A DNA stretch of 64,000 bases from Monocercomonoides exilis PA203 (Eukaryota; Protista; Preaxostyla). Positions 2,330-39,321 of the stretch are shown piece by piece. The number at the start of each line of letters is the position of its first letter. Within the stretch, counting starts at the first letter, position 1. The translations under genes were made by a program, and so were the position numbers. The DNA lies in the NCBI GenBank assembly GCA_001643675.2, contig LSRY02000004.1, forward strand, positions 1,054,001 through 1,118,000, read 5' to 3'. The notes beneath the pieces are model-generated. The model saw only the letters and a program-made list of their open reading frames with translations, did no database searches and had not been told where the DNA came from.

Positions 2330-3230
2330 TATGCAAAAAACAGTGGAACAGAAGGATCTCAGTATTTCAAAGTGAAATAAGCTCTTTTACAACAAGGATA
2401 TGACGTGAAGCTGACAATTGAAGAAAGTTTTGCACAACGAAGTTCCGAAATGCTGATATCATGAATACAAAAAAGATGTGACATTGTTTTTCCTTATTAC
2501 AGATACTGGAAATGAACCAAATACCTTGAAAGAAAATCAGTTTATCATGGTACTATTTTTGCGAATATTCAATAATACAAACAAATCAACTTTGTTTATT
2601 TGTTTGAATTATTGAGTGAGAATACCAATAAAAACAATTTCTTCTTTGTTCGGAATTTCTCAAAAGACGGTAAGTTTTTGGCGCAGTGTTGTAAGAGTCT
2701 GTTGTGCAAAAGAATGGAATGACAAACAGCAAACAATTGGAGGCCTAGGAAAAACTGTTGAAATTGACGAAGCTGTCTGGCGGAAGAGAAAATATGGAAG
2801 AAGAAGGAGAAAAGATTATGTTTGGATATTTGGATGAGTGGAGCGTCTCGACGGAGGAGGAGCTGGTAAAATATTTACTTCTATAGTCACGAAGAGAAAA
2901 AAGAAAATATTTGTTCTGCTGACTCAACGTTTTATTTTGCTCGGAACAACTATTATTTCCGACGAATGGAAGGCATATGCTTCTTTGGAGGAGCTGGAAT
3001 ATCAACGTAAAACCTTCTTCATCAAAATAATCTTCATTAATCCGGAAATTGGAACTAGGACGAACACAATATAAGGATTATGATCTCATTTGAGATGTTC
3101 TTTTCCACGGTTTGATACAAAAAAAAGTACATTTTGGATCGTTTTGTCATGTTTCTAGCCAAAATCTCTTTCAAGCTATCATTTGATGTACTAATTAATA
3201 AAATTGCAGAATTCAAAACAGAAGAAAGAG
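2330..3230 (+). pseudogene. Merlin (IS1595/ISXO2-like) DDE transposase remnant
   Basis: Motifs IGGLGKTVEIDEA, WIFG*VER, GTTIISDEWKAY and TNTI*GL, with several stops. The C-terminal part (FDVLINKIAEFKTEE) abuts the TIR element at 3235. The 5' boundary is approximate. Confidence 0.85.
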
Positions 3231-3234
3231 ATAT

Positions 3235-4157
3235 GGTATATCAGCTATGGATCCATCTGGGTGATTATTTTTGAAATCATAACTTTTTTCGGGGTGTTGA
3301 TTATATGAAAATTCATTATCATTTGCTGAATAATTGTCATTTAAACATTAAAAGTTTATCATTCGTTTCAAAAGCCAAAGTTTGACTTGAAATAATTGAA
3401 GCTGCATCATTATAAATAAATCAATAACTTTTCATGGTCCATTTATGAATATTCTTTTCAAATTTTCGTACCGATATTTTTGACAGAAAAAATATGATTT
3501 CGAAAATAATCACCCATCTCGATTAGGTCAATCAATATTATCGATTTATGTGTATCTGATGGTTGTTATCATCTTGTATAATAAGTTGGAATAGGCAATG
3601 ATAACAAGATGGAGATCGAGAGTTATTGCTAATATTCTTAGGGGTTTCTCATGATTAGATATTCAGTGATGTTCTATAAAGAAGGAGTTATTGATTGGTG
3701 TAATCGATGTGTATCTATAGCTGACATACCATATCTCCTAGGAGAAGAATTAGCTAAAGAATTAGCTGAAAGTGTTCAAGTTGGTGAATTAGTGGTGAAA
3801 TTGTGTGAAAATTGGTGTTTTCGTTGATGAAATACATGTGTTGAACATGTGTTGAATGTGTTGATGTTACCGTTGGTGAAATCATCGGTATTATCGTTTG
3901 TGAAATCGTAAATAAAAATAATTGATTTTGTTTTTTGTTTTATAGTAAATGGGTCGGAAGAAGATATACGCAACTGTGGAAGAAGCGAAAGCGGCTCAAC
4001 AGAAACAAATTAAACAGTTTCAGGAAAAACGTAAAGAAGAAACTAAGTGTTACAACGAACATGTATCTGAAAAACAGAAGAAGTTGATTAAGATATTGAG
4101 GAGAAAGCTTATCGAAAGTGATGAGCTGTTAGATGAGTTGATGGAAAAAGTTAATGG
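3235..4157 (+). repeat. Left TIR (~662 bp plus nested MITE)
   Basis: Reverse complement of 7409-8071. Identical by eye from ~3540 inward, with a few mismatches in the outer ~45 bp. Confidence 0.95.
3259..3515. mobile_element. MITE (257 bp) nested in the left TIR
   Basis: 23-bp TIR GGGTGATTATTTTYGAAATCATA. TSD ATCT at 3255-3258 and 3516-3519. The right TIR shows the empty site (GATCCATCTCGATT). Confidence 0.95.
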
Positions 4158-4161
4158 GTAA
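3949..4161 (+). CDS. 70-aa basic, coiled-coil protein encoded in the left TIR
   Basis: ATG ORF MGRKKIYATVEEAKAAQQKQ..., duplicated in the right TIR. The TIR ends almost exactly at the ORF end. Confidence 0.6.
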   Translation: MGRKKIYATVEEAKAAQQKQIKQFQEKRKEETKCYNEHVSEKQKKLIKILRRKLIESDELLDELMEKVNG

Positions 4162-4504
4162 GTTGAATGTGTTTATTTTTGGTTGATTTCGCAGTGAATT
4201 GTTTTGCCTGGACAGGTTAAGGTGGACAAGTGATGTGAGCGATGCTGCGGCGTGGAAATATTGGGTGAAATCTCCGTGCTGGAGAGAGGACAGGTGGACA
4301 GGACTGGACAGGATAAATTATATTCTCCAAAATATGTGGACAAACGGGCAAACTGAGTAAAGTGGGCAAAATACATTTAATGTGAAAATTAACTGTTTCC
4401 CGTCAAAGTTCGACATCAACCTCGACGTCATCTTCCCCGTAAATGCACGTTTCAAAAATAAATCTGTTTCAAAAAATCTTTGTTTTTTTTTTAATTTTTA
4501 TAAA

Positions 4505-6862
4505 ATGACAAACCCCCAAACAGACACTGGCAACGTGATCCAACAACTAATTGATTCAATTTCAACAGAACAGCAAACGCTGGGAGAACGAATGAAAGAT
4601 CACCTTGTTGACTTGTTCGACTACAAGAAATACTCTGACAAGAAGCAGGGCCAACGACACACTGGAAAAGCTGTCGATATCAGCAAATGTGAGGATTTTT
4701 GTGTCGTTGATGTTGATTTTAACAAATCCCTTCAAGCTGAACAAACGAAAACCATCAGGAATTCCATTCTCGAGTAACCCCCCCCCCCCCCCCCCCCCCG
4801 AAACGTCGGACTTGTACAAACAGATCATGGTGGTTTTCACATTTATTGTGAGCTGTGTGGTTATCCCCTTAAATGTTTGTCACAAACCAAAGTGTTCACG
4901 AGTCCAGAGTACGATATCGACATTTTTGCAGGCATTGGAGATCGAAAACAGAGGCTTGAAGTTCAAGCTGACTTTTCATACAGAGAGATGAAAGATGGCA
5001 AGAGAATCATCACCAAATACATTCCCCTCAACAATTACAGACAGCTAACAGATCTTTCATCACTCGAGAGTGTTCTTGACGTTTTCGGTATTGATCTCAA
5101 AACAGAGAATACATCAGCGACAATGGCAGCTGAACCACACAATCTTCTCACACAAGATGGTGTCGTTGATTTGTCTCCAACTGTCGCTCTTGCTCTTGTT
5201 GATGGACTCAAAGATGTTGAAATACATAACGATACAGGTTCTCTGTCACTTGATTCTGAGTTAACTCTTTTACCGTTATTTGCAGCTCTCAACTCTCTCG
5301 TCAACATAAACGGTTTCGACGACCAATCGATAGATTTTCTTTACAATCAAATCAGAAAGACAGCTGCTCTAACAGCAAATGCAATCACTCACTTTGAAGA
5401 AAAACGAAACAGATACAGAGATGACAAGTCACATCTATTTGTTCTACAAAAGATTGTCAAGAGATGGAATCCATCATTTTACAACGATGTGATCATTCCA
5501 CTCCTCAGAAAAGAGAATGAGCAAAAGGAAGAACCTCCACGAGAGATAACTGTTCATGAAATTGATCTCAACTCATCGTTCTCGTTCTCTGAAATCAGGG
5601 ATAAAGCTTGTCGAAAACAATACTCCTCACTGTCTGAAGTCGCCGAAGATCTCATAAAAGTTCTGAGGTTTGTTGAAGCAAGGATGGAATTTATTGTAAA
5701 AGAGTTTGACATTCACTCCTCTTGTTATTCAATAACATTCAAGACAAAATCAGCAATGTACGAACTGTTCAAAACAATAAAACTGTGGCATGATGACAAA
5801 AAGACTCTCACAGTTGAGACAGCTTTCGAACAATACTCTCATGTTCTGTCGATCGATGGAGTGAAGTTCTTCTCAGATAACCCTCAAATATTCTCCCTGT
5901 TCCATGGGTTCAAATACCAAATGGTAAACGAACAAAATGACGAAATCATCAAACCATTCCTCGATTTCACACGAGAAGTTATCGCCAATGACAACGATGA
6001 ACTCTATCAATACATCCTCTGTTGGATTGCGTCAATTGTTCAAAATCCTGGTAAAAAAGCAGAAACATCACTTGTTCTCAAAGGTTTGCAAGGTATTGGA
6101 AAGAATGTCTGGACAAATGAACTTGCTGAACTGTTGGCAGGATATTCATGTCCAAATGTCACAGAGATTGCAGAACTGACAGGACAGTTCAACTCCATCG
6201 TCGAAGGGAAAATGCTCATTGTACTTAACGAATTGAAGAATGTTGGAGATGATCGAACAGCTAACTTCGATGCCTTGAAGAGTATAATCACAGATTCAAC
6301 AATCAGAATCAATGAGAAGAATCAGCCAAGAAGAACAGCTGAGAATGTAGCTAATTTCATATTTGTGACAAATCACACATACCCGGTAAAGATTGAGATT
6401 GGTGACAGCAGATATGTTGTTTGTGATTGTGACTCAAAATATAAGAACAATCTCACATTCTACAAGGATTTCACTAACTCTTTCGATAATGAATTCTAAG
6501 AACAACTTCTCTGTTATTTCATCAGCAAAGATCTCACCAATTTCAACACTAGAGCTTTTCCAACAACGGAAGCAAAGGAAGATATCATTGCAGCATCACT
6601 CTCTGTCATCGATGTATTCTGTCAGGAGCATTACAACAAACTCAAAGAAGTGCGGGGATGTTCTGAAGCACTATGTTTCAGACCAGTTGAATACAAGAAC
6701 GATCGCTCATTCCAACTAGCAATTAAAGACAGATGTGAGAGAACACGAGTAGGTGGAAGAGGAAATCAAGTGTGGTGTTATAAACTCAAGCCAGAGTATG
6801 AACAACTCCTCAAACGACGTGAAGATGAAGATGACATTGATTGTTCTGCGGAAATTAACTAA
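4505..6862 (+). pseudogene. AEP primase-polymerase (Prim-Pol) fused to an SF3/D5-like helicase, ~785 codons, with two in-frame TAA stops
   Basis: Single frame from ATG 4505. Prim-Pol motifs VVDVD and QTDHGGFHIY; Walker A GLQGIGKN, Walker B LIVLNE, motif C FIFVTN. Stops at 4775-4777 (followed by a C22 run that keeps the frame) and 6497-6499. Confidence 0.85.
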
Positions 6863-7062
6863 ACACATTCGTTTATTTGGAATCATAAATACACAAACGA
6901 TACAACTTGTGTGCCACTGACGATTCCATGTGGCAATGTGGCAAAATGATGATACAGTCGAAAATAAATAAAAACCCTCAAAATCATGACAAATTAGGGG
7001 TAAAATGCTCATGTTGGCAGAAATAGCATGTTGGCAGCTCTTTTCAGATGAAATTAAAAGAT

Positions 7063-7094
7063 CCGGACTACCGGACTACCGGACTACCGGACTA
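7063..7094 (+). repeat. Tandem 8-mer (CCGGACTA)x4
   Basis: Four perfect copies next to the internal inverted repeat at 7099-7128. Confidence 0.95.
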
Positions 7095-7386
7095 CGCTTC
7101 CAGCACGGAGATTTTACCCAATATTTCCCTTCCCCAAGCATCTCGATACTGCCACAATTTGGTATCCGGTCTGCCGGTTGACACTTTTTCAAGCTAAATA
7201 CACCAAAATAAACCACAAATCAAGTGAAAAACATCGATGTGGCAATCCACCATAATGCCATTTGTTCAAAAAATATAGGTGTTGACAATCAACTATAATG
7301 TTATCTTGACTACTGTTTGATACAATCTACGATACAACGAACGTGTGTAGTCTGTTATATTTCGTCAATTAACACATTTTACTCAA

Positions 7387-7617
7387 TCATCCCGGTGCAG
7401 GCAAATAACCATTAACTTTTTCCATCAACTCATCTAACAGCTCATCACTTTCGATAAGCTTTCTCCTCAATATCTTAATCAACTTCTTCTGTTTTTCAGA
7501 TACATGTTCGTTGTAACACTTAGTTTCTTCTTTACGTTTTTCCTGAAACTGTTTAATTTGTTTCTGTTGAGCCGCTTTCGCTTCTTCCACAGTTGCGTAT
7601 ATCTTCTTCCGACCCAT
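7387..7617 (-). CDS. Second copy of the TIR-encoded small protein (76 aa)
   Basis: First 70 aa identical to 3949..4161; reads 6 aa beyond the TIR boundary. Confidence 0.6.
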   Translation of the reverse strand: MGRKKIYATVEEAKAAQQKQIKQFQEKRKEETKCYNEHVSEKQKKLIKILRRKLIESDELLDELMEKVNGYLPAPG

Positions 7618-8071
7618 TTACTATAAAACAAAAAACAAAATCAATTATTTTTATTTACGATTTCACAAACGATAATACCGATGATTTCACCAACGGTAAC
7701 ATCAACACATTCAACACATGTTCAACACATGTATTTCATCAACGAAAACACCAATTTTCACACAATTTCACCACTAATTCACCAACTTGAACACTTTCAG
7801 CTAATTCTTTAGCTAATTCTTCTCCTAGGAGATATGGTATGTCAGCTATAGATACACATCGATTACACCAATCAATAACTCCTTCTTTATAGAACATCAC
7901 TGAATATCTAATCATGAGAAACCCCTAAGAATATTAGCAATAACTCTCGATCTCCATCTTGTTATCATTGCCTATTCCAACTTATTATACAAGATGATAA
8001 CAACCATCAGATACACATAAATCGATTATATTGATAGATCTTAATCGAGATGGATCAATAGCTGAAATACC
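7409..8071 (-). repeat. Right TIR (663 bp)
   Basis: Inverted copy of 3235-4157 without the MITE. Confidence 0.95.
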
Positions 8072-10055
8072 ATATCTTTGGTCTGAAGAAGATCTAGCAC
8101 AGCAAGCAAAGATGTATGTTGAATCAAAGCGAAAGAGTGCTTGTTTCACACTGTTTGTTATTCGACATAATCATTCAGTTCCAATTATTGCATCGCTCAG
8201 ATAAATTGTCTTTAATTCAATAAGAGCTGAATCATTTGCTTATTGGTTTGCTTTAATTCCAAAATTAATATTTATTCGTGAATTATAATTATCTCAAAGA
8301 TCAAACCGAAATTGACTTTCTTTTGTCAGTGGTAATGATGTTGAAGTGTTCAAAATTATATTTTTCACTGCACAAGCAGTGTTTTTACTGATTCTCTTTC
8401 CCAAAAGTTCAAAATTTGAATCCTGTTCATTTTTTGTTATCCAATAAGCCGCACTTCTTCTTCACGCACAGATTCAGATTCAATGATAAAATACTGTGTT
8501 GCTTGCAAAGTCAATGCATTATTTATCATTAAACAGACAATCACACGCTCATTTTAACTTCGTTCTGTTTTTGCTTTTTCCTTTTTATTTTGTATCAGCT
8601 CCAAAAAACACATCTATTTCATTATTATGACAAATATTTTTTTCAAGCGAAAAGTAATTTTAAAAAACATTTCCTAATGTTCACTTAATGCTTTTCTTTG
8701 AAAAGATATTTATGATATGGAGTAAATATTAAAAGCGAGTGATGAAAAACTTGAGAGATTTTTGAAATTTCGTTCTTCAAAGATGTTTTGCTTACATAAA
8801 GAAAGATTATGATAAATAAACATACGCAAAAATTAAGATGCATATAAATATAAATTGAAAGCGATTGTTCATTAAATGAAAAGAAACAGCAAATTCTATT
8901 TTTAGAATATTGAAAATATAATTGTGGGGTGGTACAATTGATTTTTTAATTTGTTTAATTTTTTTTAATGTTTTATTTATTGAAAAATCATTAATTTTGT
9001 AAGAGTTTATAATTATAAACGACACTGCATCTGATTTTTGCTTTGAAATTATCAATTTTTATCAAAAATTTAAATAATAACTCAGATTTATGGATGATTT
9101 TAAAAAATAGTTTTTTCTCAAGGATCAACAAGAATTGAAAATTCCAGTCCATACAAATGTTTTATTTAGGCCTTTGCGACACAGAAAATTTTTTCGTTTG
9201 TGTCGGTCGTTTAAGTCGACTCGTGTCGGAATCAATTTATGAGAAAAAATTGTTTCACATAAATTTTTTCTTATCAAAATTTTTTAATAAACAAACTTAA
9301 CATTATTTCAATAGTATTTAGGAAAAAAACTTTTTTCAAAAATTACCATATTTCTTTTTGAATAAAAAATTATTTATGAAATTGATCAAATTTTTTTTGG
9401 ATGTTTTGTTGTATTTTCAAACAAATACAAATTCAGTCAATCTTCTTTTCGAATGAATAAGATGATAAACTTTTATATACATATGTTAATCACACAAAAG
9501 ATGGTTGTTTTCGGTTCCAACAACTGTGTTTTCTGTTTTTATAATGATATATAAATAGAAGTGAATAAAGTCATTAACAGTTTGTTAATCTACATTTAGA
9601 ATGTTTTATTTTGAACGCCAATCAGTTTTCTTTATAGTTTGAGATTGCTTTATGCAAACAAAGAACAACAGATAAATGAGAAAAAGAAGGGACTATTTAG
9701 GAATAAAATGAAATGAAAACATATATCGATGTCACAAAATGAGCAGTGAAGAAGAATAGTGAAAAAGCAGAAAAGGAAATTTGAAGAAAAGATAACAACA
9801 AAATTTTGAAGAAAAAAGATGTTTTTTTTGGAGTAGTGGAATATTTTTAATCTGAGAGTGATCGGCAATACACATTTGGAGAAAATATCTACACAAAGTC
9901 GCTGAATGGGCATTGGAGGAAGTTGAGGAAGAAGAGACAAGAAAGCAAACACTATAACCTTCAATTTTCTCGGCTGACACAGAAACAACTTTTGTTAAAG
10001 GGGAAGATTTGTGCCCTCTTTCTCATCCATTTCGATCATTGTTTATACAAAGGAT

Positions 10056-15126: not shown

Positions 15127-17814
15127 TTATATGAAAAGAAGAGAAATTAACGATTCCAAAGAAAGTGAATGCCTTCGATCTCCACAGATTCTTTTTAGTC
15201 TTGAAAAAAGGCGCTCGCAAGATGCCTCACTACAGGGCGATGCGATCAATGCATATGACAAATTGGCATAAATGTTGGGTAAAACTCCTTGCTTTGCTAT
15301 TTCGTAGTAATAAACCATCCATTTGTCTTGAAAAATAGATTGATCATAACAAATAAAATTTGAAGAATGCAAAGAAATTATCTGCTTTCTTATATCGGAG
15401 TTCATAGAAAAAAGAACAGAATTTGCGTAATCGTTGAATCCGCTTTTGATTCGAGGAAACCAGTCACTTGAAATTGTCTCGAGAATTGTTGATAATGCTT
15501 TGGTCCTTTCATCTGAATTTTCTAAATCATCTGTTGGAAGTTGTTTGCTCGATCCAAGTAAAAACAGTTCGTCAACGATATTTTCATTGGAAGAATGATT
15601 GAAAACACTTGAACTTTCTTCAGTTGATGAATCGCAATCGGCAACTTGTTGGCTTTCAATTGATCCACAAGAGTTTCTTGTGTTATATATAAATTGTTCT
15701 TTTGGAATGGTTGTTGATTCTGTCTCTTCAATGAACTCATCGTCTTCATTTTCGGTGTCATCATCTATAATACCTAATGTTTCTAAAATAAGCTGATTCT
15801 GTAAATCATCATTCTGCTCATCGCTTGAATCCTTTGTAGATAAATTATTTGTTAAATAATTGATCAATTTGAAAAGAATATCGTTGTTCAAAACAGAACT
15901 TGAAGGTGAAAATATTGACTGTGCAATATCCGGTGCTGGTGTTTGTGCAGATGAAACAGATGCAGATTCTTTTTCCATTTTTTCTATTTTCGTTTCAAGC
16001 TGTTGAAGCGAATAATGAAATGCATTCACAGATAAAGGAGATCCGAAATTTATCTGTTGTGTTGGTAAAATAAATGTTGGTTTTAAAAATACCGAAGAAT
16101 TCTGCAACTGTTGATTGGAAAGAAGATAATTGTTTGCACTATTATCCTTTGATGTGTCTTGACTCGAAGGAATTTTCATGTTCTCTTGTTGAGCACAAGA
16201 TATTGTTGAAAATGTAACAGGTGTTATCGATGATGCTGAAGAAGAAGAGTTGAGAAATGAATTATGCGTTATTTGTGAATGTGTCTTCAGAGTGTTGACA
16301 GCAGGATGCGTTGATGAAAAAGGCGATAATTTTTCTGATGATTTGATAAATTGAGTGAATTCATCTTTAAGAGAATTAAGCTTCGATGAAAAGGAGATCA
16401 CAAATGAGCTTCGATGGTAAAGTCTCACTCCAATTGGTGTTAAAGAAAAAGCCAACGCGAATTTGTTACCTCGTTCTCCAGCAAGGAAATAATTATGTAA
16501 TAAAATCATTAAATGGCAAATGCAAACTTGCCAATTCTCATCAGAAAAATAATCAAGATTAATCATCCAAAAATAATAAGCAAACGCTTTAAGTATTAGA
16601 GGAAAAACAGATCCCAGTTTAGTGTCATCGTTTTCGAGCAATAGTTGCAGTTCTCTTAAAGGAAACAGTAATATACCACATCTGATCACATCAAAAATAG
16701 AAATATCACCAAAAAACTCAGAAATTGATGGATGTTTGCAATTCACATAAAAAAAATAACAAATGTCGTATAAACAGAGCCACCTTGTTTTGACAAAGCA
16801 AGGGCACGTAGGATTTGTTGGATTTTTCGTTGATGTTTTCCTGTAGTCTTTGGATATCGTTATAATGGTCTCTTTCAATTGTCTCAAAAATTTGTTTTCG
16901 GAAAATAAATGGGTAATAATCAGATTGACTAAATGATTTGTGCAGTAAATAAAAAATGGTGGAGTTTGTAATTCATTTTGCCGAGTTTCACAAATAGTCG
17001 CATCCTCTGTGAGATTTTGCAACGCTAGCATTTGTGGTTTCAATCCATCTGTACAAAAACAACGAACCTCCCCATTCGCATCAGACACTTCCTTCATGAT
17101 AGTATGCGCCAATTTTGTGTAATCTGCAACTGAAAAACATGCATTGTTCAGGCTCCAAAAAACTGGTTTTCCATTTTCATTCAAGGGAACAACCGTTACA
17201 ATTGTTAACTTTTTTCCAGCAATAACGCCTCCATCCATCATGACGCCGACCATTGCATTGTTGATTGCTTCATTTCGTTCTTTAACTTTTCTCAAATTTT
17301 CGTCTTTAATAAGCAATGATAGTTTCCTACTGGTTAAAGATGGAAAAATGGTTTCTGAAGATAAAGAAGGGTTTTGTTGAGAAAGTCGAATTAACGAAGA
17401 AATGAATGTGTTGAATTCAGAAGAATAAGCAGATAAAAAAGCTATATTGCAATGGCTTATAAGATGAAGAAATTGCTTAATAAGAATGCAAAAATCGGAA
17501 TTGAAAATCTTTTGGACTTTTTTTGGAGGTTTTGATAAAATATGAACAGAAGGTTTAGGCTTTAGATAAGATAACATTGAAGATCCTTTTGCTAGAAAGC
17601 ATGAATGACTCCTAACACGATCTGTGTTTTTTCTTCCAGAAAAGCCACAGTTTATTCCGTGTTTGCTATTTGGACATAGATAGTAAACATGCCCATCTTT
17701 TTTCAGTGATCCATCAGGTAAAACTGGAGTGTACGCAATCCAGAGGGTATTGTTGTTAACTTCAAAGTGTATTTTCCCAATTTCTTCTTTTGTATTGTTG
17801 GGGTGAAGATAATC
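15127..17814 (-). CDS. hAT transposase, apparently intact
   Basis: Motifs MMDGG (D), CTDGL (D), CTNH (CxxH), KTRW and SEASCERLFS (E). The frame extends upstream of Met 17577 through a BED-like Cys/His segment (YYLCPNSKHGINC...RSHSC) to a likely splice acceptor at ~17814. First exon not resolved. Confidence 0.88.
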   Translation of the reverse strand, partial: DYLHPNNTKEEIGKIHFEVNNNTLWIAYTPVLPDGSLKKDGHVYYLCPNSKHGINCGFSGRKNTDRVRSHSCFLAKGSSMLSYLKPKPSVHILSKPPKKVQKIFNSDFCILIKQFLHLISHCNIAFLSAYSSEFNTFISSLIRLSQQNPSLSSETIFPSLTSRKLSLLIKDENLRKVKERNEAINNAMVGVMMDGGVIAGKKLTIVTVVPLNENGKPVFWSLNNACFSVADYTKLAHTIMKEVSDANGEVRCFCTDGLKPQMLALQNLTEDATICETRQNELQTPPFFIYCTNHLVNLIITHLFSENKFLRQLKETIITISKDYRKTSTKNPTNPTCPCFVKTRWLCLYDICYFFYVNCKHPSISEFFGDISIFDVIRCGILLFPLRELQLLLENDDTKLGSVFPLILKAFAYYFWMINLDYFSDENWQVCICHLMILLHNYFLAGERGNKFALAFSLTPIGVRLYHRSSFVISFSSKLNSLKDEFTQFIKSSEKLSPFSSTHPAVNTLKTHSQITHNSFLNSSSSASSITPVTFSTISCAQQENMKIPSSQDTSKDNSANNYLLSNQQLQNSSVFLKPTFILPTQQINFGSPLSVNAFHYSLQQLETKIEKMEKESASVSSAQTPAPDIAQSIFSPSSSVLNNDILFKLINYLTNNLSTKDSSDEQNDDLQNQLILETLGIIDDDTENEDDEFIEETESTTIPKEQFIYNTRNSCGSIESQQVADCDSSTEESSSVFNHSSNENIVDELFLLGSSKQLPTDDLENSDERTKALSTILETISSDWFPRIKSGFNDYANSVLFSMNSDIRKQIISLHSSNFICYDQSIFQDKWMVYYYEIAKQGVLPNIYANLSYALIASPCSEASCERLFSRLKRICGDRRHSLSLESLISLLFI

Positions 17815-19491
17815 TAAAAAATTATGTAAATTTTATCATTATATTTAAGATCCAAAATAAAAATTATAAAAGAAAACATTTTCCGTTGTTTGTGAATTTA
17901 GTGCATATCAAAGTGACAAATGAACATCCTTTCTCTTTTAATTCAGAAATTTTATCTGAAAACGCTTTTTGCTTTACATGAATACATTAATATTAAAAAT
18001 TTTAAAGAATTCAAAAGAAAATCAATGTTTAACAAACTATTTGTGGAATAGATAAACAGCTTCTTAATTCAGCTGGTAATTCAAAAATGAAACCATCATC
18101 CATTTCGGACATTTATTATCGACACAACACGACAGATCTTGAGATCCGAATGATCCAGACAGATCTGAACAGATCTTTGTCGAATTGATCTGTCGAAAAC
18201 CCATTAAATACATCATGATTAATATTTTAAATAAAAATAAATATGAATAATTCTTAACAAAATATTTGAAATTAAATACAACAAATTAAAGTGAAGTAAT
18301 TTTTTAATTGTGAATGAAAAAAAAATATCTTATTAAAAAAAAAAAAGAATTTCCTGTCGGTCGACTAGTCGAAACCATTTTTATAAGTCGGCTTGTCGCA
18401 AAGGCCTAGTTTTATTATTAAATCAACTTTTTAATAATCAAAATGTTTTAATGAATAATAAAGGATTGGAAATGTGCCTTAAATACACCTATGCCGAAAA
18501 GAGGATGCAGAATTGAGAGCTAAAAACAACACCTTTGGAGTTGAACACAGTTACGTGACGTTCTCGTCAGCCGAAAAGAAACAATATGCGATTTCCACAC
18601 TTACAGAATTAACTCAGTGTTTAAAAAAAGAAAACGTTTCATTCTGGAAGAAGGATGATAAGAATAAGAAAAAGAAGAAAAGGAAGAAAAGGAAGAAAAG
18701 GAGAAAGAATTCGGAATGGGAGGAAGTTCAAATTTTTTTGGGGAGTTTCACAAGCTGCTTGAAGAAAGAAAGGAAAATGAAAGGCTCTGACAATATGAGA
18801 TGATCCTCACACGTTTGTGGAATGAGCGAGATGAGAAGTTGAAGGGAGCAAAGACGATAGTGGTGGTTGTGTGTGTGTATGTGTGTTGCAAAGACAATGT
18901 TGTGGCTGAGATGACAAAATGGATGAAGTGGAAGATGAGGAAGAGAACGAAGAAGAAAACGAGGATTATTTAGAGGAAGAGAAAATGAAAGTTGATAAGC
19001 GAATGAAGGTTGTTGACGTAATTTTCATTTTGCTGATGTCGGATAATTGTTTATGCGAAAAAGAAAGTGATAAGAAGTTCGACTTGTGATAATTATTTGG
19101 TTTTTGTGTTAAATCTTCAATATCATAAACCTTTTGATGAAAAAATTCTTGTTCTTATCATTTTCTTTCTTCGAATAATTTTTTTTTTTTGCTTTTCTTA
19201 GCCTTTTGTTGTCTTTCTTCCTCCACATTCATCCTCTTTCCTTTTTTTTTCTTCGTCGCCTTTTTTATTTGTTCTTCTTTCAATTTTCTCTTTTTCTTCT
19301 TTTCTCATTTTGTTTTTATCTTGATTTTTTTTTTCAAAGATCGGATATAATTTCTATCAGTCCTATAATAATATCCGACAATATCACAATTCTATCGGTT
19401 TTCAAAGAACACTTTGACGTTAATTTCTTTTGTTGCAATTATTACTTTTGTAACGTAATATCACCTTTATTTATTTAACAAAGATAAATAT

Positions 19492-19735: not shown

Positions 19736-19975
19736 GGGTGATTCTTTTTGAAAAGTCACAAAAGTTTAATTTTCAAATAAATCAATAATTTCATATTTTA
19801 CTCAAATTTCTGTTAGCATGCACCAAACTTACCAAATATGGAATCCATTATTGGATAATGCTATTTCATGCATTCAAGTGAAGTTACGTGAATGTTAACA
19901 GAAATTTGAGCAAAATATGAAAATTTTAATTTATTTGAAAATTAAACTTTTGTGACTTTTCAAAAAGAATCACCC
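19736..19975. mobile_element. MITE (240 bp), TSD ATAT
   Basis: Long TIR GGGTGATTCTTTTTGAAAAGTCACAAAAGTTTAATTTTCAAATAAAT. ATAT at 19732-19735 and 19976-19979. Confidence 0.95.
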
Positions 19976-23600: not shown

Positions 23601-24230
23601 GAGGAGGAGGAAAAAGAGAAAGTGAAGGCACTTGTGATATGAAAGATGGAGTTGTGGAGTGAAATGAGATGTGCTGTGATGAAGTGGCATGAAATGGAAA
23701 TTAAGTGTCTATTGAAGATGGCTGTGTTGTAGTGGGCAGAAGCAAAGGAACTGGTCAAATGGAAGAAGAAGAGGAGGAAGAAGAAGAATAGAAAAATAAT
23801 AATGCATGAGTTATTTTTCTTCGAGCTTTTTAAATAACAACGTTAAAATTATCGCAATTAATCAAATCCACATCAGGCGCAATGATATCACAAAAATCTT
23901 CCATTCATAATCATTATATTTAATACAAAACAACAATCTTTTTGATTCCTTTCATATTTCTTCTCCAGTTTTTCGCAAATTTCTCATTTGTTTTTCAAAC
24001 GCAAAATATATTATTATTATGGTTAAAAAATATCAAAAAATTTCAAAAAATTAAAAAAAAAATAAATTAATAAATATAAACAAATAAAAAAACAGTGAAG
24101 TTTGGGTAATACAGAGATATATTCATGAATTGCAAAATTAGGGAAAAAACAATCATATCAATCTTATCGACAAATGAATAATTTCTCGACCGACAAATTG
24201 CACGCAAAAAATATGTGTCGCAGAGGCCTA
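20671..24230 (+). mobile_element. Non-autonomous hAT (3.56 kb) with host cargo
   Basis: TIR TAGGCCTCTGCGAC...GTCGCAGAGGCCTA. TSD TTTTGTTG/CTTTGTTG (one mismatch). Subterminal CGACAGATC motifs match the 18.1-18.4 kb end of the 9167 element. Confidence 0.92.
22136..23770 (-). pseudogene. Intron-containing host-gene fragment carried by the nested hAT
   Basis: Ser/Gly-rich exon-like blocks separated by AT-rich intron-like gaps (~22380-22550, ~23240-23375). Includes a (CCTTCTCCT)n repeat at ~22686-22745. Confidence 0.5.
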
Positions 24231-27200
24231 CTTTGTTGATTGAGTTTGGAAAAATTGGTTCGAATGTCAGATGTTTTTGTTCTGATGGCTTGAAATCGCA
24301 GGTTCAAGCACTCACAAAATTGTTCCATTCGTTTAACCAGGTTCCAATGGAACACGCTGACAGTCTGTCGTTGTTTAATCATATTTTCGTTCCTTGCTTG
24401 AATCATCTACTGAATTTGATCGTCAGTCATGCATTTCAAGATAATAAATTCTTGAACAATGTGAGAGAAATGCTCGTTAATTTCAGCACCGCGTCGCATA
24501 TAACAGTCAATCGAAAAATATTGGTTCGGAAATGTCCGACTTTTATCCGAACAAGGTGGTTGTGTTTATTTCAAATATGCAATTATATTAGGACAAACAT
24601 CCAAAGGGTTCGTTTGAGCAAGTTACTGAATGAAGAAAACATTAAAGCTGCTGGAATAACAGAACTTTTACTATTTCCGATTAACTATTTGCATCTCCAA
24701 TTCGAAAAAGACTCCACAAAGATATCTTTTGTGTTTCCTATTTTATTGAACGCAATGAGCTTATTCTTCTATTATTCAACATTGAATATATTTCAACAGA
24801 AAGATTGGCACAATGCAATAACAGACATTATCATTCTGCTTTTCAACTACACATTTTCTGGTGAAAGAGGCAGATTTTTTGCCTTTACTTATGCCCTTTC
24901 ACCAATTGGAGCAGGAAAATATCGAAAAGGTTTGTTCACAAATTGCGATATAGTATTTTCTGAAATTTCGAAGCACCAAAGCATTATGAAATTCAATTTA
25001 TCGAATATTCCATCTTCATCAAATGCGATTGAATCATTTGTCAAATCATTTTCATCTTCAAGTTTTTCTCAGCCAACTTCCTCGTCATCAACGATCCCAT
25101 TTCAATTATCTTCAACTCAAAAACATTCTTCTTCTTCTCAGTTATCCTCTCACATTCAACAACAAATGTCTCCACTGCTCATTTCTTGTTCAACTAATAT
25201 TTTATCAAACACAATTTCTTCTCTATCTGCTTCACTGCCGACCTCAATTGCTGCAATTTTTAATCATTTTTATGCACTTTATATCAAAACAGCAATGGAA
25301 AGATTTCGGAATCGATTTAGTTTACACACTCAACAATTGTATTCTTCATTAACATAGATTTGCCTAAGTAAAACAGACTTTGCAAACATTGGAAATTGCT
25401 CAGAAATAATGAAATTTGTTTGTGAAATTATTGATCATATTGAAAAAACCGAAATAGAAATTGCAAAAGAAGATGAAAGCGAAAGTGATGGATATTTTGA
25501 TGAATTTGAATGTGATGTGGAAATAGAAAAATTCGAAAGTGGTGAAATTTTTATTTGTATGATTAGGATAATAAAGAAAACAATTCTGAATCATTTTAAG
25601 AAGATGAAGATAAAGTTTCAACATATCGCATAAAAAATACAACAAGAGCGAAAGATGAAAGGGATATAGTTGGAAACCAAGAAGAAAATGGAACAGATAA
25701 AGAAATCTGTTACAAAAACAAAACAATTAGACGAGAGTGCGAAAGATCATTTGCAAATGAATAAGACATTTTCTGCTTTGGAAACTATTCGTCAAGGAAA
25801 AGAATATTGAAATATGATTCAACAACTGAAAATGAAGCATTGGAGCAAATCAATAAAGCTGCTTTTTTTGATTTGTATTTTCGACTTATTGTCATTTTCG
25901 ACGAAGCAATAAATATCATTTTGCAAAGGATTGGATGATATTCTTATTTCAGGATGTGAAGCTCTCTTTCGAAGAAGTTTTTAATATTCAGGATGATTCT
26001 GTCATTGAGGACGATCCATATTTCTTTGATGAAGATTTGGCTCTGAAAGGGGATATGGAAACTGTTAATTCTTGTTTTGCCTTCCATTTGATTGCATCCC
26101 CTTGGAGAAAAGCCTTATTTGAACGCATGGTTTCAAAGGCAAAAAGAATTGTTGGAGATCGAAGATATTCTCTTTCATTGATTTCTTTTAATAAAAAAAT
26201 GCGTATGTGATTGTTTTTTTTAAAAACAATGTTTCGTTTGTTAACATTTGAAAGTTTTTCATCTCACTCATTCAATTTTTGTAATTTCAGTCAACAAAGC
26301 TACCATTAAATATGAAAGATGTTCTTTTCTATTTATTTTTTCAAAAATTTTGAGGAAAATACGGAATTTCAAACTTTTTTTGCACAAGGCATAAATAAGT
26401 ATTTCACTCATAACTTAATTTCGCTTTCTCAGATTTCAAAATAAATCTGATTTTCATATCCGTAAACAGGAATCACTGATATAACAACATATTGTTTCGT
26501 GTTCTCACACGCATTTCAAAAAATGAACCCATTTAATTCATATTATTTAATCACAAAAGGTTCGTTCACAGTGCAAATTTTTTCAATGAAAAAGCCTGAA
26601 ATTCGATATTTCCCCCCATTTGATTTTGAAAACTTTGTGAAAAACACAAACGTTGTGTGTTGTTGAATTTTGAATTCAGAACAAATTATTGAACTCTTTT
26701 TGCTTGAAAGAAAATAAACAATAAAATCAAAGTTCAAATTACGAAATGAAATTGATAAAGAAATGTTATAAAAAAGAATAAAGATTAAAATATTTTTTGT
26801 CACAGCAGCGAGAAAATAAAAAAACCTTTAAAGTTAAAATGCAGAAAGAAATTGAAGCTAATATCTAAAAATGAAGTTTTGTCAAGAATAAACAATAGTG
26901 AATTTTTAATTTGGAACATTCACATAGAAAGATGTATTCATCTTATTTGAATTTGAAAGAAAATATTTTTAATTATATTGTTAATCAATTATCTAAAAAA
27001 GAATTCAGAATTTAATGATATCAGAAATATAATAACCACTTCAAATTGAAAAAAAACCAAAGTTATATTTTCATAAACAGTTGAATAAGAAAAAGAATGT
27101 TGTCTTAGAAGTGATTCATTTTTTGTTTTTTTTGCCAATAGAATTTTTGTTGATATTACAGTTCAAACAACAAGTTTCACATTTCTTCATTTTTTATTCA

Positions 27201-30727: not shown

Positions 30728-33690
30728 ATGATTGATGTAAAAATTCAATTCACCAATTTCAACTCTTTCATATTCCGTTTCAACAATGGCATTAATATAG
30801 ATGAGTTGAAAGGAATTATTGCAAATCTGATGAATGCAAATTGTGAGAGCATTTCCCTTTTATTCATGGGAAAAGTGCTGAAGGATGGATTGTCATTAAA
30901 TAAGCAAGGTTTTCTTGTGCTTTTCGAAAATATATTATTCCTTTTTTAGGTGTTTGTTGTAGGTCATCAATCCTTGTTGTTGAATCGTCATTCAATAATA
31001 CTTCAAATCAATCAGAATTTGAAACAAACCATTGCTCAAATACTTCAGAAATAAAGAAGCTTGCTTCTATTTCATTAATAAGCTCTCACATTCTAAGGTT
31101 ATTGCCCGATTATGAAAAAAAAAGCGTAAATTCTGGTTGCAAAAAGTTACTTGATCTTAGTTTTTATGATGGTTTGTTATTGCTGATTTTTTATTTTTTT
31201 TTTTTTTTGTCTTCTATTTATGTAAAAATTAGAATATTTCATTTCACAAAAATGGAACAAAATGTTTCAGGGATTTGTTAAGCATCAGCTAAAGCGTTCA
31301 AATGAAGGGAATGGAAAAAAAAGATTTGAAGCAGTCCAACTTGAATACCAAAATTTTTCACAGAAATTTGCTGAGAATCTTGAAATCAATCCTCAAATTA
31401 GTTATTCATTGAGTGAAATAAAAAATATTAGCAATGGTATTGAAGTGAAAGCTTCGAAACATTCAAAATATTTTGAAGGATTGCCAAAAAAGCGCTTACA
31501 TACTAATTACATTCATTTCGCTATTAACAAGCTGCAAAGTCGCAGCACTTCAGACGAAAAGATTGAACCTGAAGGTACAGCAAGTTTTCATTGTATTTAA
31601 GTTTCAAAATTTCACCATTTTATTTTAATATTCGTTTGTTTGAATATTTCCAATGTTATTAATTTTCATATGTGAAAATTTCAATCTTAATAGGAAAAAA
31701 ATTTTCTGAATTGCAAACTTTGAAGATTAAAAAAGAAGAATCCAACAAACAACCAAACGAAATCATGAAAAAGAAAAAGGAAATAATTGACTATCCTTTT
31801 GAACAATTATTCAAGCTCACAGAAAAAGAGCATGTTTCCGATCAAAGTACAGCTGAAGGTAATGAACAGCCTTCCATTGTGAAAATGTTGAACAGTCTGA
31901 AATCTCTTCGAAATTCGAGCAAAGATGCGCCAACAGATGATCAGATGCAGATGAAGTCTCGTTACATCACAGCTGACGAGAAATTTTTAGATTTTCCTGG
32001 GCTTTCAATGGGAATGAACAGAAACTCTGATCTATCGGAAAGGATGTTGCACAAGACTCTAACCTCAGATGAAAAGTCTTCAGTGCCAAATCTTGATACG
32101 TTTGATGATGCTGCTGTTCAGCAACGCGTCGAAATGTTGTGGAATCTTTACGAAAAGCCAGAATTAGCAAAGGATTTCTGCCTTTCTGTGTACGGTGAAG
32201 AAGGGTTGAGAAACAATAAAGATGCAGCAGAGCTCATAGCTGGATCAGAAAATGATCCTGTCGTTGTTCAAGCCTATGCAATCATGCAGCTTTATTCGCT
32301 CAGAGAAGAAAACGGACTACCATGGAATCGATATGGAAAGTGGAATGTGAAATTGCACACGAATGGCTTGCGTTATTTGTCAAAAGAAGAAATGGATGCA
32401 ATGGACGATAAGGAGAAAGCACGCAGGGCAAGAAAACGGGTGTTGCCCGAAGGTTATTGTAGAAGAGATCTTACAAAAAGCGAGCTTCAGCAACTGTATG
32501 GAGAATATGTTCCTCTAAAGCGCTTACGGAAGCTTTATGCAATGTGCGACTATCCGCAATACGCAATCGAGATTTTCTCAAGTTCAGCTAGTAAAGTGGA
32601 CAGGGTGAATATTGCAGAAAAGTTTAAGGAAAAGAATAATGTTATAAAACTCCTTCGGAGCCGTCAGAATCCGGACGAGCTGAGAAACGAACTTCAATTA
32701 AAACTTCTTGAAAATGGATTTGTTGCTTTGAACGATCGGGACTTTACAGTGCTGGATAAAATTGACGATGAGGCTGAGCAACAAGAGCTATTAAATAGAA
32801 GCACTGCTCAAACATCTGGCTGTGATATTGCTTCGTCTTCTTCTGTTCCATCATGTGTCCAGCCATCAAATTATTCTGATTCACAAAGTTGGTTTATCAA
32901 TGTCATTCAGAGAGGTTATGATAATCCTGAGGAATTTCCTCGACTTGTGAGTTCAGCTCCTGCTCAATTTACTGGAACTGAGAAAGTGTTTCTTAAGATG
33001 ATGAGTGAAGTGGCGAAGATTCAGCCTATTGTGTTTCGTTCCACATTACTCATCTATTTAATGCGTTCTAAAGGATTTGGTGCATTGCCTTGGAATCGAG
33101 AAGGGGAATGGGATATGAGAGCTGCAACGTCAAGGCTTAGTTTCAGATCGGCGAGTCAGATAAGCAAAATGTCTGATTCCGAGCGAATGTGGCGAACGAA
33201 AGAAAGAGTCCTTCCTCAGCCGTATAGAAGAAGAATGCTGACCAAAGAAGAAAAGAAGAAGCTATATCGTGGATGCGTTCCAAATGCACAGGAAGAGCTT
33301 CTATATTATCAGTATGACTTTCCTCAACACTATGTGAAGCTGTCTTTTTGCCCAGCGTTCTTCATGAATCGTAATGTCGTGCCTGACGAACTATTAAGCC
33401 AGGATGTGGTCTATGAAATGATATTAGCGGAACAAAATCCGATTTTTGTTCGAACTTTTACAAGACAAAGATTAGAGGAAGGAGGATTTCCGCGGCCTGC
33501 TGAAAGAGATTTTTCTGTGATGATTTCTGTTGACGATGAGGCAGAACTCGAAGAGATAAAGAGACGGAAACAGAATGGAGAGCCGCTAACAAAGTGCTTG
33601 TTGCCAACAGATCCTGAGCCTCAATCGGCTAGCTTTACGAAGAGAATTAATGAGCTTTTTTCAAAATCAGGATTATTTGACTTTGATTAA
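30728..33690 (+). CDS. Protein with N-terminal ubiquitin-like domain and two copies of an unknown ~180-aa domain (4 exons, ~913 aa)
   Basis: Exons 30728-30908, 30950-31171, 31233-31574 and 31694-33690 join in frame via GT-AG introns. Ubl-like signature IDELKGIIA...LLFMGKVLKDGLSL..GV. Confidence 0.8.
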
Positions 33691-35453: not shown

Positions 35454-35654
35454 GGATGATCCTTTTTGAAATCTTCCTTTCGTTCGAGTTTTGATAAAAA
35501 ATTCAATATCAACGGGATTTTGAAAAATTGATCAAAACTATTAGAACATATTGTTCATGATGTTTTTATTGCAGAAACAAAAAAAAAAAATCCCATTGAA
35601 ATGGAAATTTTGATCAAAACTCGAACGAAATGAAGATTTCAAAAATAATCAGCC
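35454..35654. mobile_element. MITE (201 bp), TSD ATAT
   Basis: Imperfect ~45-bp TIR GG.TGAT..TTTTGAAATCTTC.TTTCGTTCGAGTTTTGAT. ATAT at 35450-35453 and 35655-35658. Confidence 0.88.
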
Positions 35655-36096
35655 ATATGTGACATATTTTTTTGTTTTTTTCAGAAACGCAAAATTTTTG
35701 CTTTTGTGATGAAAATTGATAATAAATATTTCAAAATTGCTCAGAAAGGCAAATTTGATATTGAAATTTTTTGTGTCGTTCATTTTTAATTTGGTATGAG
35801 TTTCCGAAAGTGTTATGTTAGTTGAACAAGAACAGTCCACAATTTTTTAAAGTTATTGAACAACTTTTAAATGGTAGAGGACAATATAAAAATTTTAACA
35901 ATTTCATGCAAAGTGCATTGTTCTTTTCAATTAAATTCGGTTTTGTTCGAAAAATTTATTATTATGAATTATGATTTGATTATCTTAAAATTTGGTGAAG
36001 CAATGCTCTGAATGAAATGATTTTTGATTAGAGCGAAATGAAGTTTAAAAAATGAAAAAAAAAAAATGATTGTTTGTATTCCACTTCCTTATTCTT

Positions 36097-39000: not shown

Positions 39001-39153
39001 AAACCTTAATGAATACAAATCAACTTGTTCAGGAGCATCAACATCGATCGTCAATCGTATAGGAAATGGAGTTGTGCGCTTTAATAATCTTAAACTTGGA
39101 TATTGTTCTTTCAATGATATAAGCTCCTTTTTAATGAATTCTTTGTTATCCAT
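36097..39153 (-). CDS. ABCF2: ABC-F ATPase (ABCF2/Arb1 type) with N-terminal RWD-like domain
   Basis: Two ABC domains (GLNGSGKS/MSGGW/LLLDEPTNHLD and GQNGCGKS/LSDGQ/LLLDEPTNHLD), no transmembrane segments. LSLTFHGKELL and YIARFG are ABCF2-like. Likely start MDNKEF at 39153. Confidence 0.9.
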   Translation of the reverse strand: MDNKEFIKKELISLKEQYPSLRLLKRTTPFPIRLTIDVDAPEQVDLYSLRFLFVISERYPTEACGLECQSDEMKEDQKISFCNSIMKTCKKKTVSDVTAWVSDPNNLFKIFVPMCDSYPGVNSDGSSCLRWALKNAGEIAIAEQPKPDYLAPETENGDEKSKDEKDAEGSDEKKIEPLVDVSTLPTDPASLRQAMLNLIGPAELRDKKDKKKKDESGKKKKKKKKKKGTGDDDDDDWMLYDDDESELSEEEIRERKRERMRQERMHHVRKDPTSVFTLSAEAAGSTRKARKAKKQAEAGGDKGEGGDSSATPTPSPSPTQGSSSSSKQGDDEKGSSSLLSGAKETTIREELSDVIADLTAVGVITSSASSRDTQIGSLSLTFHGKELLVDTSIELGMAKRYGLVGLNGSGKSVLLKAIAARELPVPAFLDVYLLDREAPPLEVEALDYVVSVDEERLQIEKKIDDLLNGSGGGKGDRKGGRGKGKGKKRGGDASSATPGVDGEDGPTSSSSSSSSSSSSAASELTDEQLDLLNDLYLRLDELEADTAKARAGAILRGLGFSAEKQRQHTKDMSGGWRMRLSLARALFVRPDILLLDEPTNHLDLESCVWLERHLKQYERCLVVVSHSQDFLNNVCNRIMHLHLKKLTIYTGNYDQYVITRREREENQRRQYETEQAQIADIKEYIARFGRGRSKMAAQAQSRAKQLEHMEQRGLTEAVVDDRKFQFTFSKCGTLPPPVIQFDGVSFAYALKDTQQTSASASASSASSSTTPSSSLPPVPKLGPVLFSNVSFSLGMDARIALVGQNGCGKSTLLKLMCGELNPLEGNIRRHRNCRIARYHQHLEEQLDLSLSPLEFMLKKFPPSGVPDGEKKVIPAGTTPGMGAELSGGMSFGSTVSSAEQALRGALGRYGLTGQAQLLPMKTLSDGQRSRILFAWLAFSIPHFLLLDEPTNHLDLETIDALATAINQFEGGVLLVSHDFRLIRQVAKEVWLCEDGKVEPFKGGIEAYRKLLESKMEKE

Positions 39154-39321
39154 TGAACAAAAGATTATTATTACAACTTTGATCACATTAAAAAACAAAT
39201 TTTACAATAAGAAAAATGTAAAGTGATATCATTCAACAAAGACTTTCTAATGTTAAAAAATAAATAAATAAAACTATAGAAAAAATAAGATCTCATTAGG
39301 ATTTTGCATAAAACATAATCA

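Follow-up and report, generated by a model that had tools for sequence, protein, structure and literature searches.

A multicopy element of Monocercomonoides exilis with one Prim-Pol/SF3 gene between long terminal inverted repeats and no integrase of its own

We found that the stretch of 64,000 nucleotides of Monocercomonoides exilis DNA analysed here (the window) contains one copy of a dispersed element in which a single Prim-Pol/SF3 gene lies between long terminal inverted repeats (TIRs), and which encodes no integrase. With about even confidence, we propose that this multicopy element likely came from a Polinton-like virus (PLV) replication module of gut protists, and that a DDE transposase acting in trans likely inserted it. 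Our best reading is therefore of a non-autonomous, composite-like derivative of PLV replicase modules. The initial annotation of this DNA had instead proposed a new class of mobile element. We do not retain that proposal, because a 2026 preprint (bioRxiv 10.64898/2026.10.13.758929, section 13) already proposes AEP-only mobile units, of which the element would be a variant, and because the evidence points to a PLV derivative. The features of the element and its target are collected in Table 1.

Table 1. Features of the element and its surroundings (positions within the window)
Feature	Coordinates	Strand	Remarks
Decayed ISXO2/Merlin-type transposase gene, 3' part	2616..3230	+	target interrupted by the element; PF12762 E 6e-7; 49% identity to P0179
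GAAGAA, left copy of rival 6-bp target-site duplication (TSD)	3221..3226	.	partner 8085-8090; element would be 3227-8084, AG..CT ends
Left ATAT	3231..3234	.	likely 4-bp TSD; right copy 8072-8075
Whole element	3235..8071	+	favoured boundary; ATAT-flanked, with GG...CC ends and a step in depth at each end
Left TIR	3235..4160	+	~665 bp once MITE insertion is removed
MITE-like terminal unit in left TIR	3235-3730	.	mirror of 7836-8071
Unrelated high-copy MITE in left TIR	3259..3515	.	257 bp; GGGTGAT ends; ATCT duplicated 3255-3258/3516-3519
70-aa ORF in left TIR	3949..4161	+	basic, likely coiled-coil; no family
Subterminal inverted repeat, left	4254..4283	.	30 bp; partner 7099-7128, 97%
AEP Prim-Pol/SF3 (NrS-1/D5-like) helicase pseudogene	4505..6862	+	TAA 4775-4777 and 6497-6499; C run 4778-4799
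Subterminal inverted repeat, right	7099..7128	.	30 bp; adjoins 9-bp tandem array ~7063-7096
76-aa copy of TIR ORF	7387..7617	-	annotated paralog P0192, 89% identical
Right TIR	7406..8071	-	666 bp
MITE-like terminal unit in right TIR	7836..8071	.	~49-bp imperfect inverted repeats 7830-7877 vs 8029-8077; ATAT on both sides
Right ATAT	8072..8075	.	partner of left ATAT 3231-3234
GAAGAA, right copy of rival 6-bp TSD	8085..8090	.	partner 3221-3226

The TIR arms, at 3525-4160 and 7406-8041, match at all but 4 of 636 positions (99% identity overall), and there are no differences at all over the 618 bp at 3540-4157. The initial annotation had recognized long TIRs, of ~663 bp, but had missed that the left one is split by a MITE. 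Contigs from other copies of the element skip exactly 261 nt at this point in 4/4 runs, other contigs have diverse loose ends at 3258/3517, and the MITE is present at 3.8-20x the depth of the Prim-Pol/SF3 gene. The outer ~240 bp of each TIR resembles a MITE in its own right: it lies between two copies of ATAT and has ~49-bp inverted repeats of its own. As DNA, this terminal unit is predicted to fold stably (z = -5.1), with 0/200 shuffles equally stable. Its abundance is 1.2-1.7x that of the gene and not above that of the remaining TIR, so solo copies are not evident. Near-exact matches to the terminal motif are found only inside the element, besides isolated one-mismatch matches in the 64-kb window, which also contains a separate GG..CC MITE with ATAT flanks at 19736-19975.

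The motifs from which a single Prim-Pol/SF3 gene was initially described are indeed found between the TIRs, but in this copy they belong to a pseudogene. It has TAA stops at codons 91 and 665, where the paralogs have Lys and Tyr, a run of 22 C, and an R635S substitution at a site that is invariant in 13/13 distant homologs. Reading both stops as code-6 glutamines was ruled out, because a 1034-aa ABCF frame that stays open under table 1 shows the host to have the standard code. The gaps between the gene and the TIRs are just ~345 and ~545 bp long, which leaves no space for an integrase, capsid or pPolB gene and bears out the earlier statement that none is present. There is no ORF space for a protein-primed PolB within 3235-8071; neither the ORF list nor a Pfam search of the element revealed an rve integrase gene; and no ORF for a double jelly-roll capsid, packaging ATPase, DDE transposase or His-Me nuclease was found in it. 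Because the element encodes no integrase, integration must come in trans, as the earlier suggestion of borrowed machinery would have it. The small ORFs noted at the outset in each TIR are 70 and 76 aa long. They have no Pfam match at the cut-off (best Atlas score 0.85), neither they nor the TIR DNA matched any of the 59 loci compared, and Rfam gave 0 matches in 3100-8200.

To compare structures, we used a model of the intact paralog P0002 (pLDDT 89.7). Residues 25-196 of the model match the prim-pol domains of pRN1 ORF904 (Z 9.9, rmsd 3.6, 153 aligned) and NrS-1 (Z 8.2), while residues 339-757 match the NrS-1 helicase (Z 26.9, rmsd 4.0, 365 aligned). The modelled folds thus identify the product as the AEP-SF3 fusion that had been expected, that is, a replicase of the AEP-S3H type. 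Its helicase is SF3 and its N-terminal domain AEP, and no pPolB-S1H (Tlr1-like) protein of the transpoviron type is present.

The gene is annotated at 9 loci on 8 contigs of M. exilis, with 82-96% identity, in agreement with the predicted dispersed, TIR-bounded family having only an AEP-SF3 gene. The gene itself was found in the dispersed copies, and the absence of an integration gene was read in the present one. Just one of the nine annotated copies is whole with all motifs; the other eight are partial or broken as annotated. Depth over the gene, in 4/4 runs of one sample, is 22-53x that of the flank bins (~30x in summary), and internal junctions are rearranged among copies. Of the 32 minority residues of the present copy, 15 are common to P0003, on another contig, and 4 of those fall at positions that 11-13 of 13 distant homologs conserve. 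Because this sister copy has the same damage at conserved sites of the primase, spread of the copies in trans is likely. A lineage whose primase domain was damaged beforehand was apparently duplicated, which weakens the initial proposal that the element copies itself; the shared residues could alternatively derive from segmental duplication or gene conversion.

Where exactly the element ends can be read in two ways. We favour a 4-bp ATAT duplication, with the element at 3235-8071, over a possible 6-bp GAAGAA duplication with Polinton-like AG..CT ends. ATAT does flank the element on both sides, as first reported, but by itself it is no proof of a TSD, because the mirror symmetry of the ends continues through it, out to 3229/8077; the rival 6-bp repeat lies at 3221-3226/8085-8090. 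When the empty site was reconstructed under each reading and compared with the tail of the transposase paralog P0179, the ATAT reading beat shuffles (P 0.003-0.02) whereas the 6-bp reading did no better than shuffles (P 0.3-0.7), in a post hoc test with low scores (BLOSUM sum <=5) against a paralog only 49% identical. The right-flank paralog contigs (X2, X4) begin to align at 8079, within the part that the 6-bp model gives to the element. The GG..CC and ATAT arrangement, possibly of Kolobok/PHIS type, was read at this one locus. The ends of the interrupted Merlin-like element were looked for within the 64-kb window and not found.

We also examined homologs in gut metagenomes and their neighbours. 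A full-length homolog (L054) directly precedes an rve-like integrase (Pfam E 2e-4, below the cut-off), and a shorter one (L057) likewise lies directly before an integrase (E 1e-12 to the L051 integrase). Two helicase-only homologs (L046 and L049) sit beside A32 ATPases that score above the Pfam cut-off. L051 also encodes a 542-aa ORF that may be capsid-like, although Pfam gave no support for this. In a FastTree tree of 54 sequences and 362 columns, which includes partial and helicase-only rows and leaves out ~113 of 150 listed matches, the family nests in a clade with L045 and L046 (support 0.896); deep support is weak and the root falls on a long branch. Searching IMG/VR with the family alignment returned 44 loci, all helicase-only, at 24-35% identity (one 59-residue match at 42%), and queries with P0027 and P0037 returned no match there. 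A plasmid search gave 12 records, also helicase-only, with <30% identity in the 10 listed. AEP-S3H is a known PLV replicase (PMC11161782, in the accessible text), and the M. exilis assembly is reported to contain 6 MCP genes (PMC10120064 Table S1). Because members of the protein family are interspersed with virus-like contigs that carry an rve-like integrase or an A32 ATPase, and because of these six capsid genes, we regard the element as a derivative of PLVs rather than an independent class.

A related but somewhat unlikely explanation is that the element arose by deletion from a longer Maverick/PLV-type provirus that had the same TIRs, and that the parent's rve integrase made the 6-bp duplication. 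The homologs adjoining rve-like integrases, the capsid genes of the assembly and the rearranged internal junctions would all fit such an origin, as would the GAAGAA repeat, which directly abuts AG and CT; AG/CT-type ends and 6-bp TSDs are characteristic of Mavericks and rve integrases in the accessible text of PMC8097293 and PMC12220804. The chance rate is 0.04% for the repeat with CT before it and 3.6% without CT (both post hoc). Where other copies have loose ends, ATAT is preceded by AGAG (in 7 and 5 contigs, with agreement of 0.84 and 0.89), which would be expected if the terminus truly starts with AG but equally if such targets are preferred. Against this, the right end would have 5 extra letters with no mirror on the left, the empty-site test and the flank paralogs favour ATAT, and there are ~30 gene copies to 6 capsid genes. 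Moreover, GAAGAA occurs at 0.43% of positions in the window, and its left copy encodes EE, which is also present in paralogs of the target transposase.

Alternatively, the element could belong to a true class of minimal replicons: linear AEP-SF3-only elements that exist in many gut protists as self-replicating free DNA and integrate just occasionally, by borrowed enzymes. The catalytic motifs are conserved among homologs of 35-48% identity, the identical TIR arms suggest that ends are copied during replication, and AEP-only mobility is proposed in section 13 of the preprint. The longest contig is <=4.6 kb in 17/19 examined clusters of long or near-full-length homologs, two of which peak at 4551 and 4555 nt, but these sizes are weak evidence either way, because short contigs are usual in metagenomes and assemblers collapse TIRs. 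We consider this class quite unlikely, since long inverted repeats were found in 0/14 readable related gut-metagenome contigs, both full-length homologs with context (L054 and L056) have extra virus-type neighbours, and most annotated copies are partial or broken. It is more improbable still that the gene is passive cargo, a stray viral gene with no role in movement that was captured by two inverted MITE-like ends. The MITE-like terminal units and the spread of damaged copies would be expected in that case, but one copy has kept a whole ORF, and on both sides the TIR continues inward of the MITE-like unit for another ~425 bp, which contain an ORF and are followed by the 30-bp subterminal inverted repeats. 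These inner structures suggest an older replicon with its own ends.

Under the preferred reading, a PLV-derived element moved in trans, the intact protein would load as a hexamer and, starting at origins in the TIRs, would unwind and prime the DNA, by analogy with NrS-1/D5-type proteins. The outer ~240-bp units, with their GG..CC ends, ATAT duplication and palindromic target, are predicted to be the ends bound by the transposase, and the whole element would then move in the manner of a composite transposon. Proteins encoded at other loci may go on moving, and perhaps replicating, copies whose own gene is damaged; that the present copy shares its damage with P0003, yet has TIR arms identical over 618 bp, supports movement in trans.

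Several known systems resemble the element in part, as far as the accessible text of the papers cited here describes them. PLVs with AEP-S3H (PMC11161782, PMC11296320, PMC12220804) share the AEP-SF3 fusion, TIRs of several hundred bp and genomic integration, and relatives of the element sit in contigs with an A32 ATPase or rve-like integrase. In contrast to PLVs, the element has no capsid, packaging ATPase, protease or recombinase, is 4.8 kb rather than 14-40 kb long, and has 4-bp ATAT flanks under the favoured boundary. Polintons/Mavericks (PMC8097293, PMC6431247) likewise have long TIRs, and under the rival boundary the element would possibly share AG..CT ends and a 6-bp repeat with them, but it lacks pPolB, rve integrase and the capsid module. 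Transpovirons, which are PLV-derived, and Tlr1 (PMC11161782) are also capsid-less and replicase-centred; they have pPolB-S1H or a Tlr1-like helicase where the element has AEP-SF3, and we know of no giant-virus host for the element. KolobokP composite-like transposons and Kolobok/PHIS MITEs (PMC9587614, PMC10045372) also have long terminal repeats with their own TIRs in each unit, and the element would share their purine-purine ends and 4-bp TSD under the favoured boundary. However, KolobokP has direct rather than inverted repeats and a DDE transposase gene of its own, and Kolobok is described with TTAA, not ATAT, as its TSD. At the protein level, the NrS-1 primase-polymerase/helicase, pRN1 ORF904, ASFV PrimPol and SaPI PriRep (PDB 6k9c, 6a9w, 3m1m, 8wvz, 7ola) have the same domain folds and order, but at 11-19% identity and in other hosts and genomic settings.

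A further parallel is the independently mobile AEP replicases proposed in section 13 of the preprint, which describes one AEP-only unit in EVE_QPMI01_83 and 11 extra AEP-SF3 genes in Bodo saltans virus, copies that lack flanking repeats; repeat-flanked helicases are described in entomopoxvirus TIRs (PMC11296320 section 9). Like these replicases, the element has an AEP-SF3 gene with no integration gene and several dispersed copies. It differs from those in the text of that section in that it forms a chromosomal family, has long TIRs that encode an ORF and is likely flanked by a TSD, and in that no homing endonuclease adjoins it. We found no published description of the family in the searchable text of the literature; the accessible text of the two oxymonad genome papers (incl. 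PMC8767320) contained no passages on viral or poxvirus-like genes.

Unclassified repeats make up 35% of the M. exilis assembly (PMC8767320, in its accessible text), and the family described here gives an identity to one part of them. Even if it proves to be no more than a deletion derivative, the repeat family is undescribed, though then of modest interest. AEP-SF3 replicases are frequently swapped among PLVs, and the preprint's evidence that they move on their own, in the accessible text, is the one AEP-only unit and the repeat-less copies. The family is a bounded, multicopy chromosomal case in a likely cultured protist, with one intact gene, and it makes testable both the self-copying of such replicases and the identity of the integrating enzyme. 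A bolder and rather unlikely possibility is that eukaryotic AEP-SF3-only replicons of ~4.5 kb are widespread, amplify as free linear DNA from origins in their TIRs, and enter chromosomes via the ends of a host DDE transposon; if so, they would be self-synthesizing elements that borrow their transposase, and a means by which replicases are swapped among PLVs. If our reading of a virus-stripped gene with a borrowed transposase holds, the family would be a concrete example of the recently proposed replicase-only mobile element.

The sole long frame inside the element was proposed in the initial annotation to fuse a Prim-Pol to an SF3 helicase, and structure prediction bears this out on P0002, the intact paralog (pLDDT 89.7). 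In the P0002 model, residues 25-196 match the prim-pols of pRN1 ORF904 (Z 9.9, rmsd 3.6, 153 aligned) and NrS-1 (Z 8.2), while residues 339-757 match the NrS-1 SF3 helicase (Z 26.9, rmsd 4.0, 365 aligned). Foldseek, a profile search and Atlas also back this predicted assignment, and the catalytic motifs are retained in homologs of 35-48% identity. Examination of the element's frames likewise upheld the claim that it lacks an integrase, capsid or polymerase gene, as the remaining interior DNA is too short for any of these. In the gene itself, codons 91 and 665, which read Lys and Tyr in paralogs, are TAA stops. Because the host uses the standard genetic code, this copy is a pseudogene. The first stop, as read in the window sequence, adjoins a run of 22 C that cut the reads; at position 6499, most of the contig depth carries the Tyr letter and a small share the stop.

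The claimed TIRs of ~663 bp, with a small ORF in each, are real. A 257-bp MITE at 3259-3515, which has inverted ends and is flanked by ATCT on each side, interrupts the left TIR, and contigs from other copies jump exactly 261 nt there in all four runs. Once this MITE is taken out, the left arm reaches the element end, so that each TIR is ~665 bp, with a basic ORF of 70-76 aa. Comparison of the arms (3525-4160 and 7406-8041) gives 4 mismatches in 636 positions, all of them outside 3540-4157. In both TIRs the outermost ~240 bp has imperfect inverted repeats of ~49 bp at its borders and an ATAT on either side. Letters unlike those of nearly all other copies occur in both arms (3540-4157 and 7409-8026), which implies that the arms were homogenised after the lineage split, whether by replication, conversion or assembly polishing.

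We found copies elsewhere in the genome. The closest proteins, annotated either as "putative Poxvirus D5 protein" or as uncharacterized, are from M. exilis, where nine gene models, including the element's own, lie on eight contigs and are 82-96% identical; just one is whole, with all motifs. The contig of a TIR-ORF paralog equals in size that of one gene model. Contig depth over the gene was 22-53 times that of flank bins in four of four runs from one sample, possibly the window's source, a ratio that is not a copy number. Almost half (15/32) of the minority residues of the element's gene are common to P0003, a damaged sister copy on another contig, and four of the shared residues fall where 11-13 of 13 distant homologs agree. 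Together with the identical TIR arms, this shared damage suggests, from sequence comparison, that the lineage was damaged before it was copied and inserted, and hence that the proteins required for this act in trans. Alternatively, the shared damage may stem from segmental duplication or conversion.

The target of the element is a decayed ISXO2/Merlin-type transposase gene, interrupted in its 3' part, and two boundaries compete for the ends of the element (see table). When the empty site was read against the tail of P0179, a transposase paralog, boundary A outscored shuffles (P 0.003-0.02) and boundary B did not (P 0.3-0.7), although scores were low and the comparison post hoc. Boundary A also gains from right-flank paralog contigs, which align from 8079, and from a second GG..CC MITE at 19736-19975, with ATAT on both sides in a palindromic context. 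That MITE and another at about 35613-35656 are akin to the MITE that interrupts the left TIR. For boundary B, AG..CT ends with a 6-bp duplication are described as a Maverick/rve signature in PMC8097293 and PMC12220804; by a post hoc estimate the GAAGAA repeat arises by chance in 3.6% of cases, or 0.04% with CT. AGAG before ATAT is also common to other copies, but under boundary A a palindromic target preference would account for the shared AG. The ATAT-flanked ends first claimed are the favoured reading, with the GAAGAA boundary as a competitor.

Coordinates of the element and of other features in the window
Feature	Position	Strand	Basis or remark
Boundary A	3235-8071		GG..CC ends, ATAT flanks
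Boundary B	3227-8084		AG..CT ends, GAAGAA repeat
AEP Prim-Pol/SF3 gene	4505-6862		sole long frame of interior
hAT-like transposase frame	15127-17832	-	weak PF05699
hAT-like transposase frame	24182-25357	+	likeness to 15127-17832 frame, by eye only
675-aa frame, internal two-fold repeat	31663-33690	+	frame reading
ABCF-type ATPase, N-terminal RWD-like domain	36097-39201	-	RWD E 3e-4, just under cut-off
DDE_1 (pogo-like) transposase remnant	48930-49523	-	weak Pfam match

Elsewhere in the window, the ABCF-type ATPase and its RWD-like domain are possibly an unusual fusion, and the 675-aa frame had no Pfam match.

A representative search returned 360 proteins at E <= 1e-30. Of the related contigs, 14 were readable: 11 came from metagenomes, and three, probably contaminants, had been binned in prokaryote MAGs; a fourth genome match turned out to be a distant bacterial helicase. 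Long inverted repeats are absent from all 14, but most of these contigs are short. A FastTree tree of the helicase halves, whose deep nodes are weak, places P0023 as sister to the family (0.987), with P0027 next (0.92; 10-11-kb contigs), nested in a clade holding contigs L045 and L046 (0.896). A32 ATPases adjoin helicase-only homologs in L046 and L049. The gut metagenome contigs L050-L053 represent one virus-like element with an rve-like integrase (the L051 ORF has near-identical counterparts in L052-L053), an SF3 gene of the helicase-only kind and an ORF of 542 aa that possibly encodes a capsid protein. No hallmark gene was found in L047, L055 or L058. L056 has a full-length homolog next to a small ORF with 44% identity to an ORF of L048. 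This contig runs on for 170 bp past its AEP-SF3 gene, and a short hairpin and an ACTACT motif make its end resemble that of a Maverick (L056:3260-3426); it was placed in an archaeal MAG, where it is probably a contaminant. Rve-like integrases follow a full-length homolog directly in L054, which uses code 6 (L054:81-4079), and a shorter homolog in L057 (L057:729-4001). This pairing of an AEP-SF3 or SF3 gene with an rve-like integrase in gut protist elements looks atypical, since a preprint reports tyrosine recombinases as the usual partners of AEP replicases and pPolB as that of DDE integrases (bioRxiv 10.64898/2026.10.13.758929).

We consider the element most likely to be a replicase end-module of a Polinton-like virus (PLV), moved by a DDE transposase. 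AEP-S3H is described as a common PLV replicase in PMC11161782 and PMC11296320, and Table S1 of PMC10120064 lists six capsid genes for the M. exilis assembly. The module would have lost its capsid and integrase genes and gained, or always had, ends recognised by a DDE transposase. By analogy with NrS-1/D5-type proteins, an intact AEP-SF3 would start at the TIRs, priming, unwinding and copying the DNA, and a putative transposase that duplicates ATAT would insert the copy in trans. KolobokP offers a composite-like precedent, but its repeats are direct (PMC9587614); TSD lengths of other superfamilies were taken from PMC10045372.

A plain deletion derivative with Maverick ends, to which the boundary B signature would belong and the preferred boundary A would not, seems to us unlikely. 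That the element belongs to a true minimal class replicating in free form is improbable. Among 19 clusters whose homologs are long or near-full-length, 17 have no contig above 4.6 kb, a weak hint of more small elements; two clusters of distant AEP-SF3 homologs, P0008 and P0009, reach at most 4551 and 4555 nt in several assemblies, and these are possibly complete small replicons. Passive cargo, in a family that keeps one whole gene among its damaged copies, is the reading we find very hard to credit.

What was first claimed as a new mobile-element class looks instead like a derivative of Polinton-like viruses. Our literature search found no description of the M. exilis family, which is apparently undescribed, but independent movement of AEP genes has already been proposed (bioRxiv 10.64898/2026.10.13.758929, section 13), on the strength of a single AEP-only unit and of Bodo saltans virus copies that lack repeats. 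The M. exilis family is a good test case for this published hypothesis of mobile AEP replicases.
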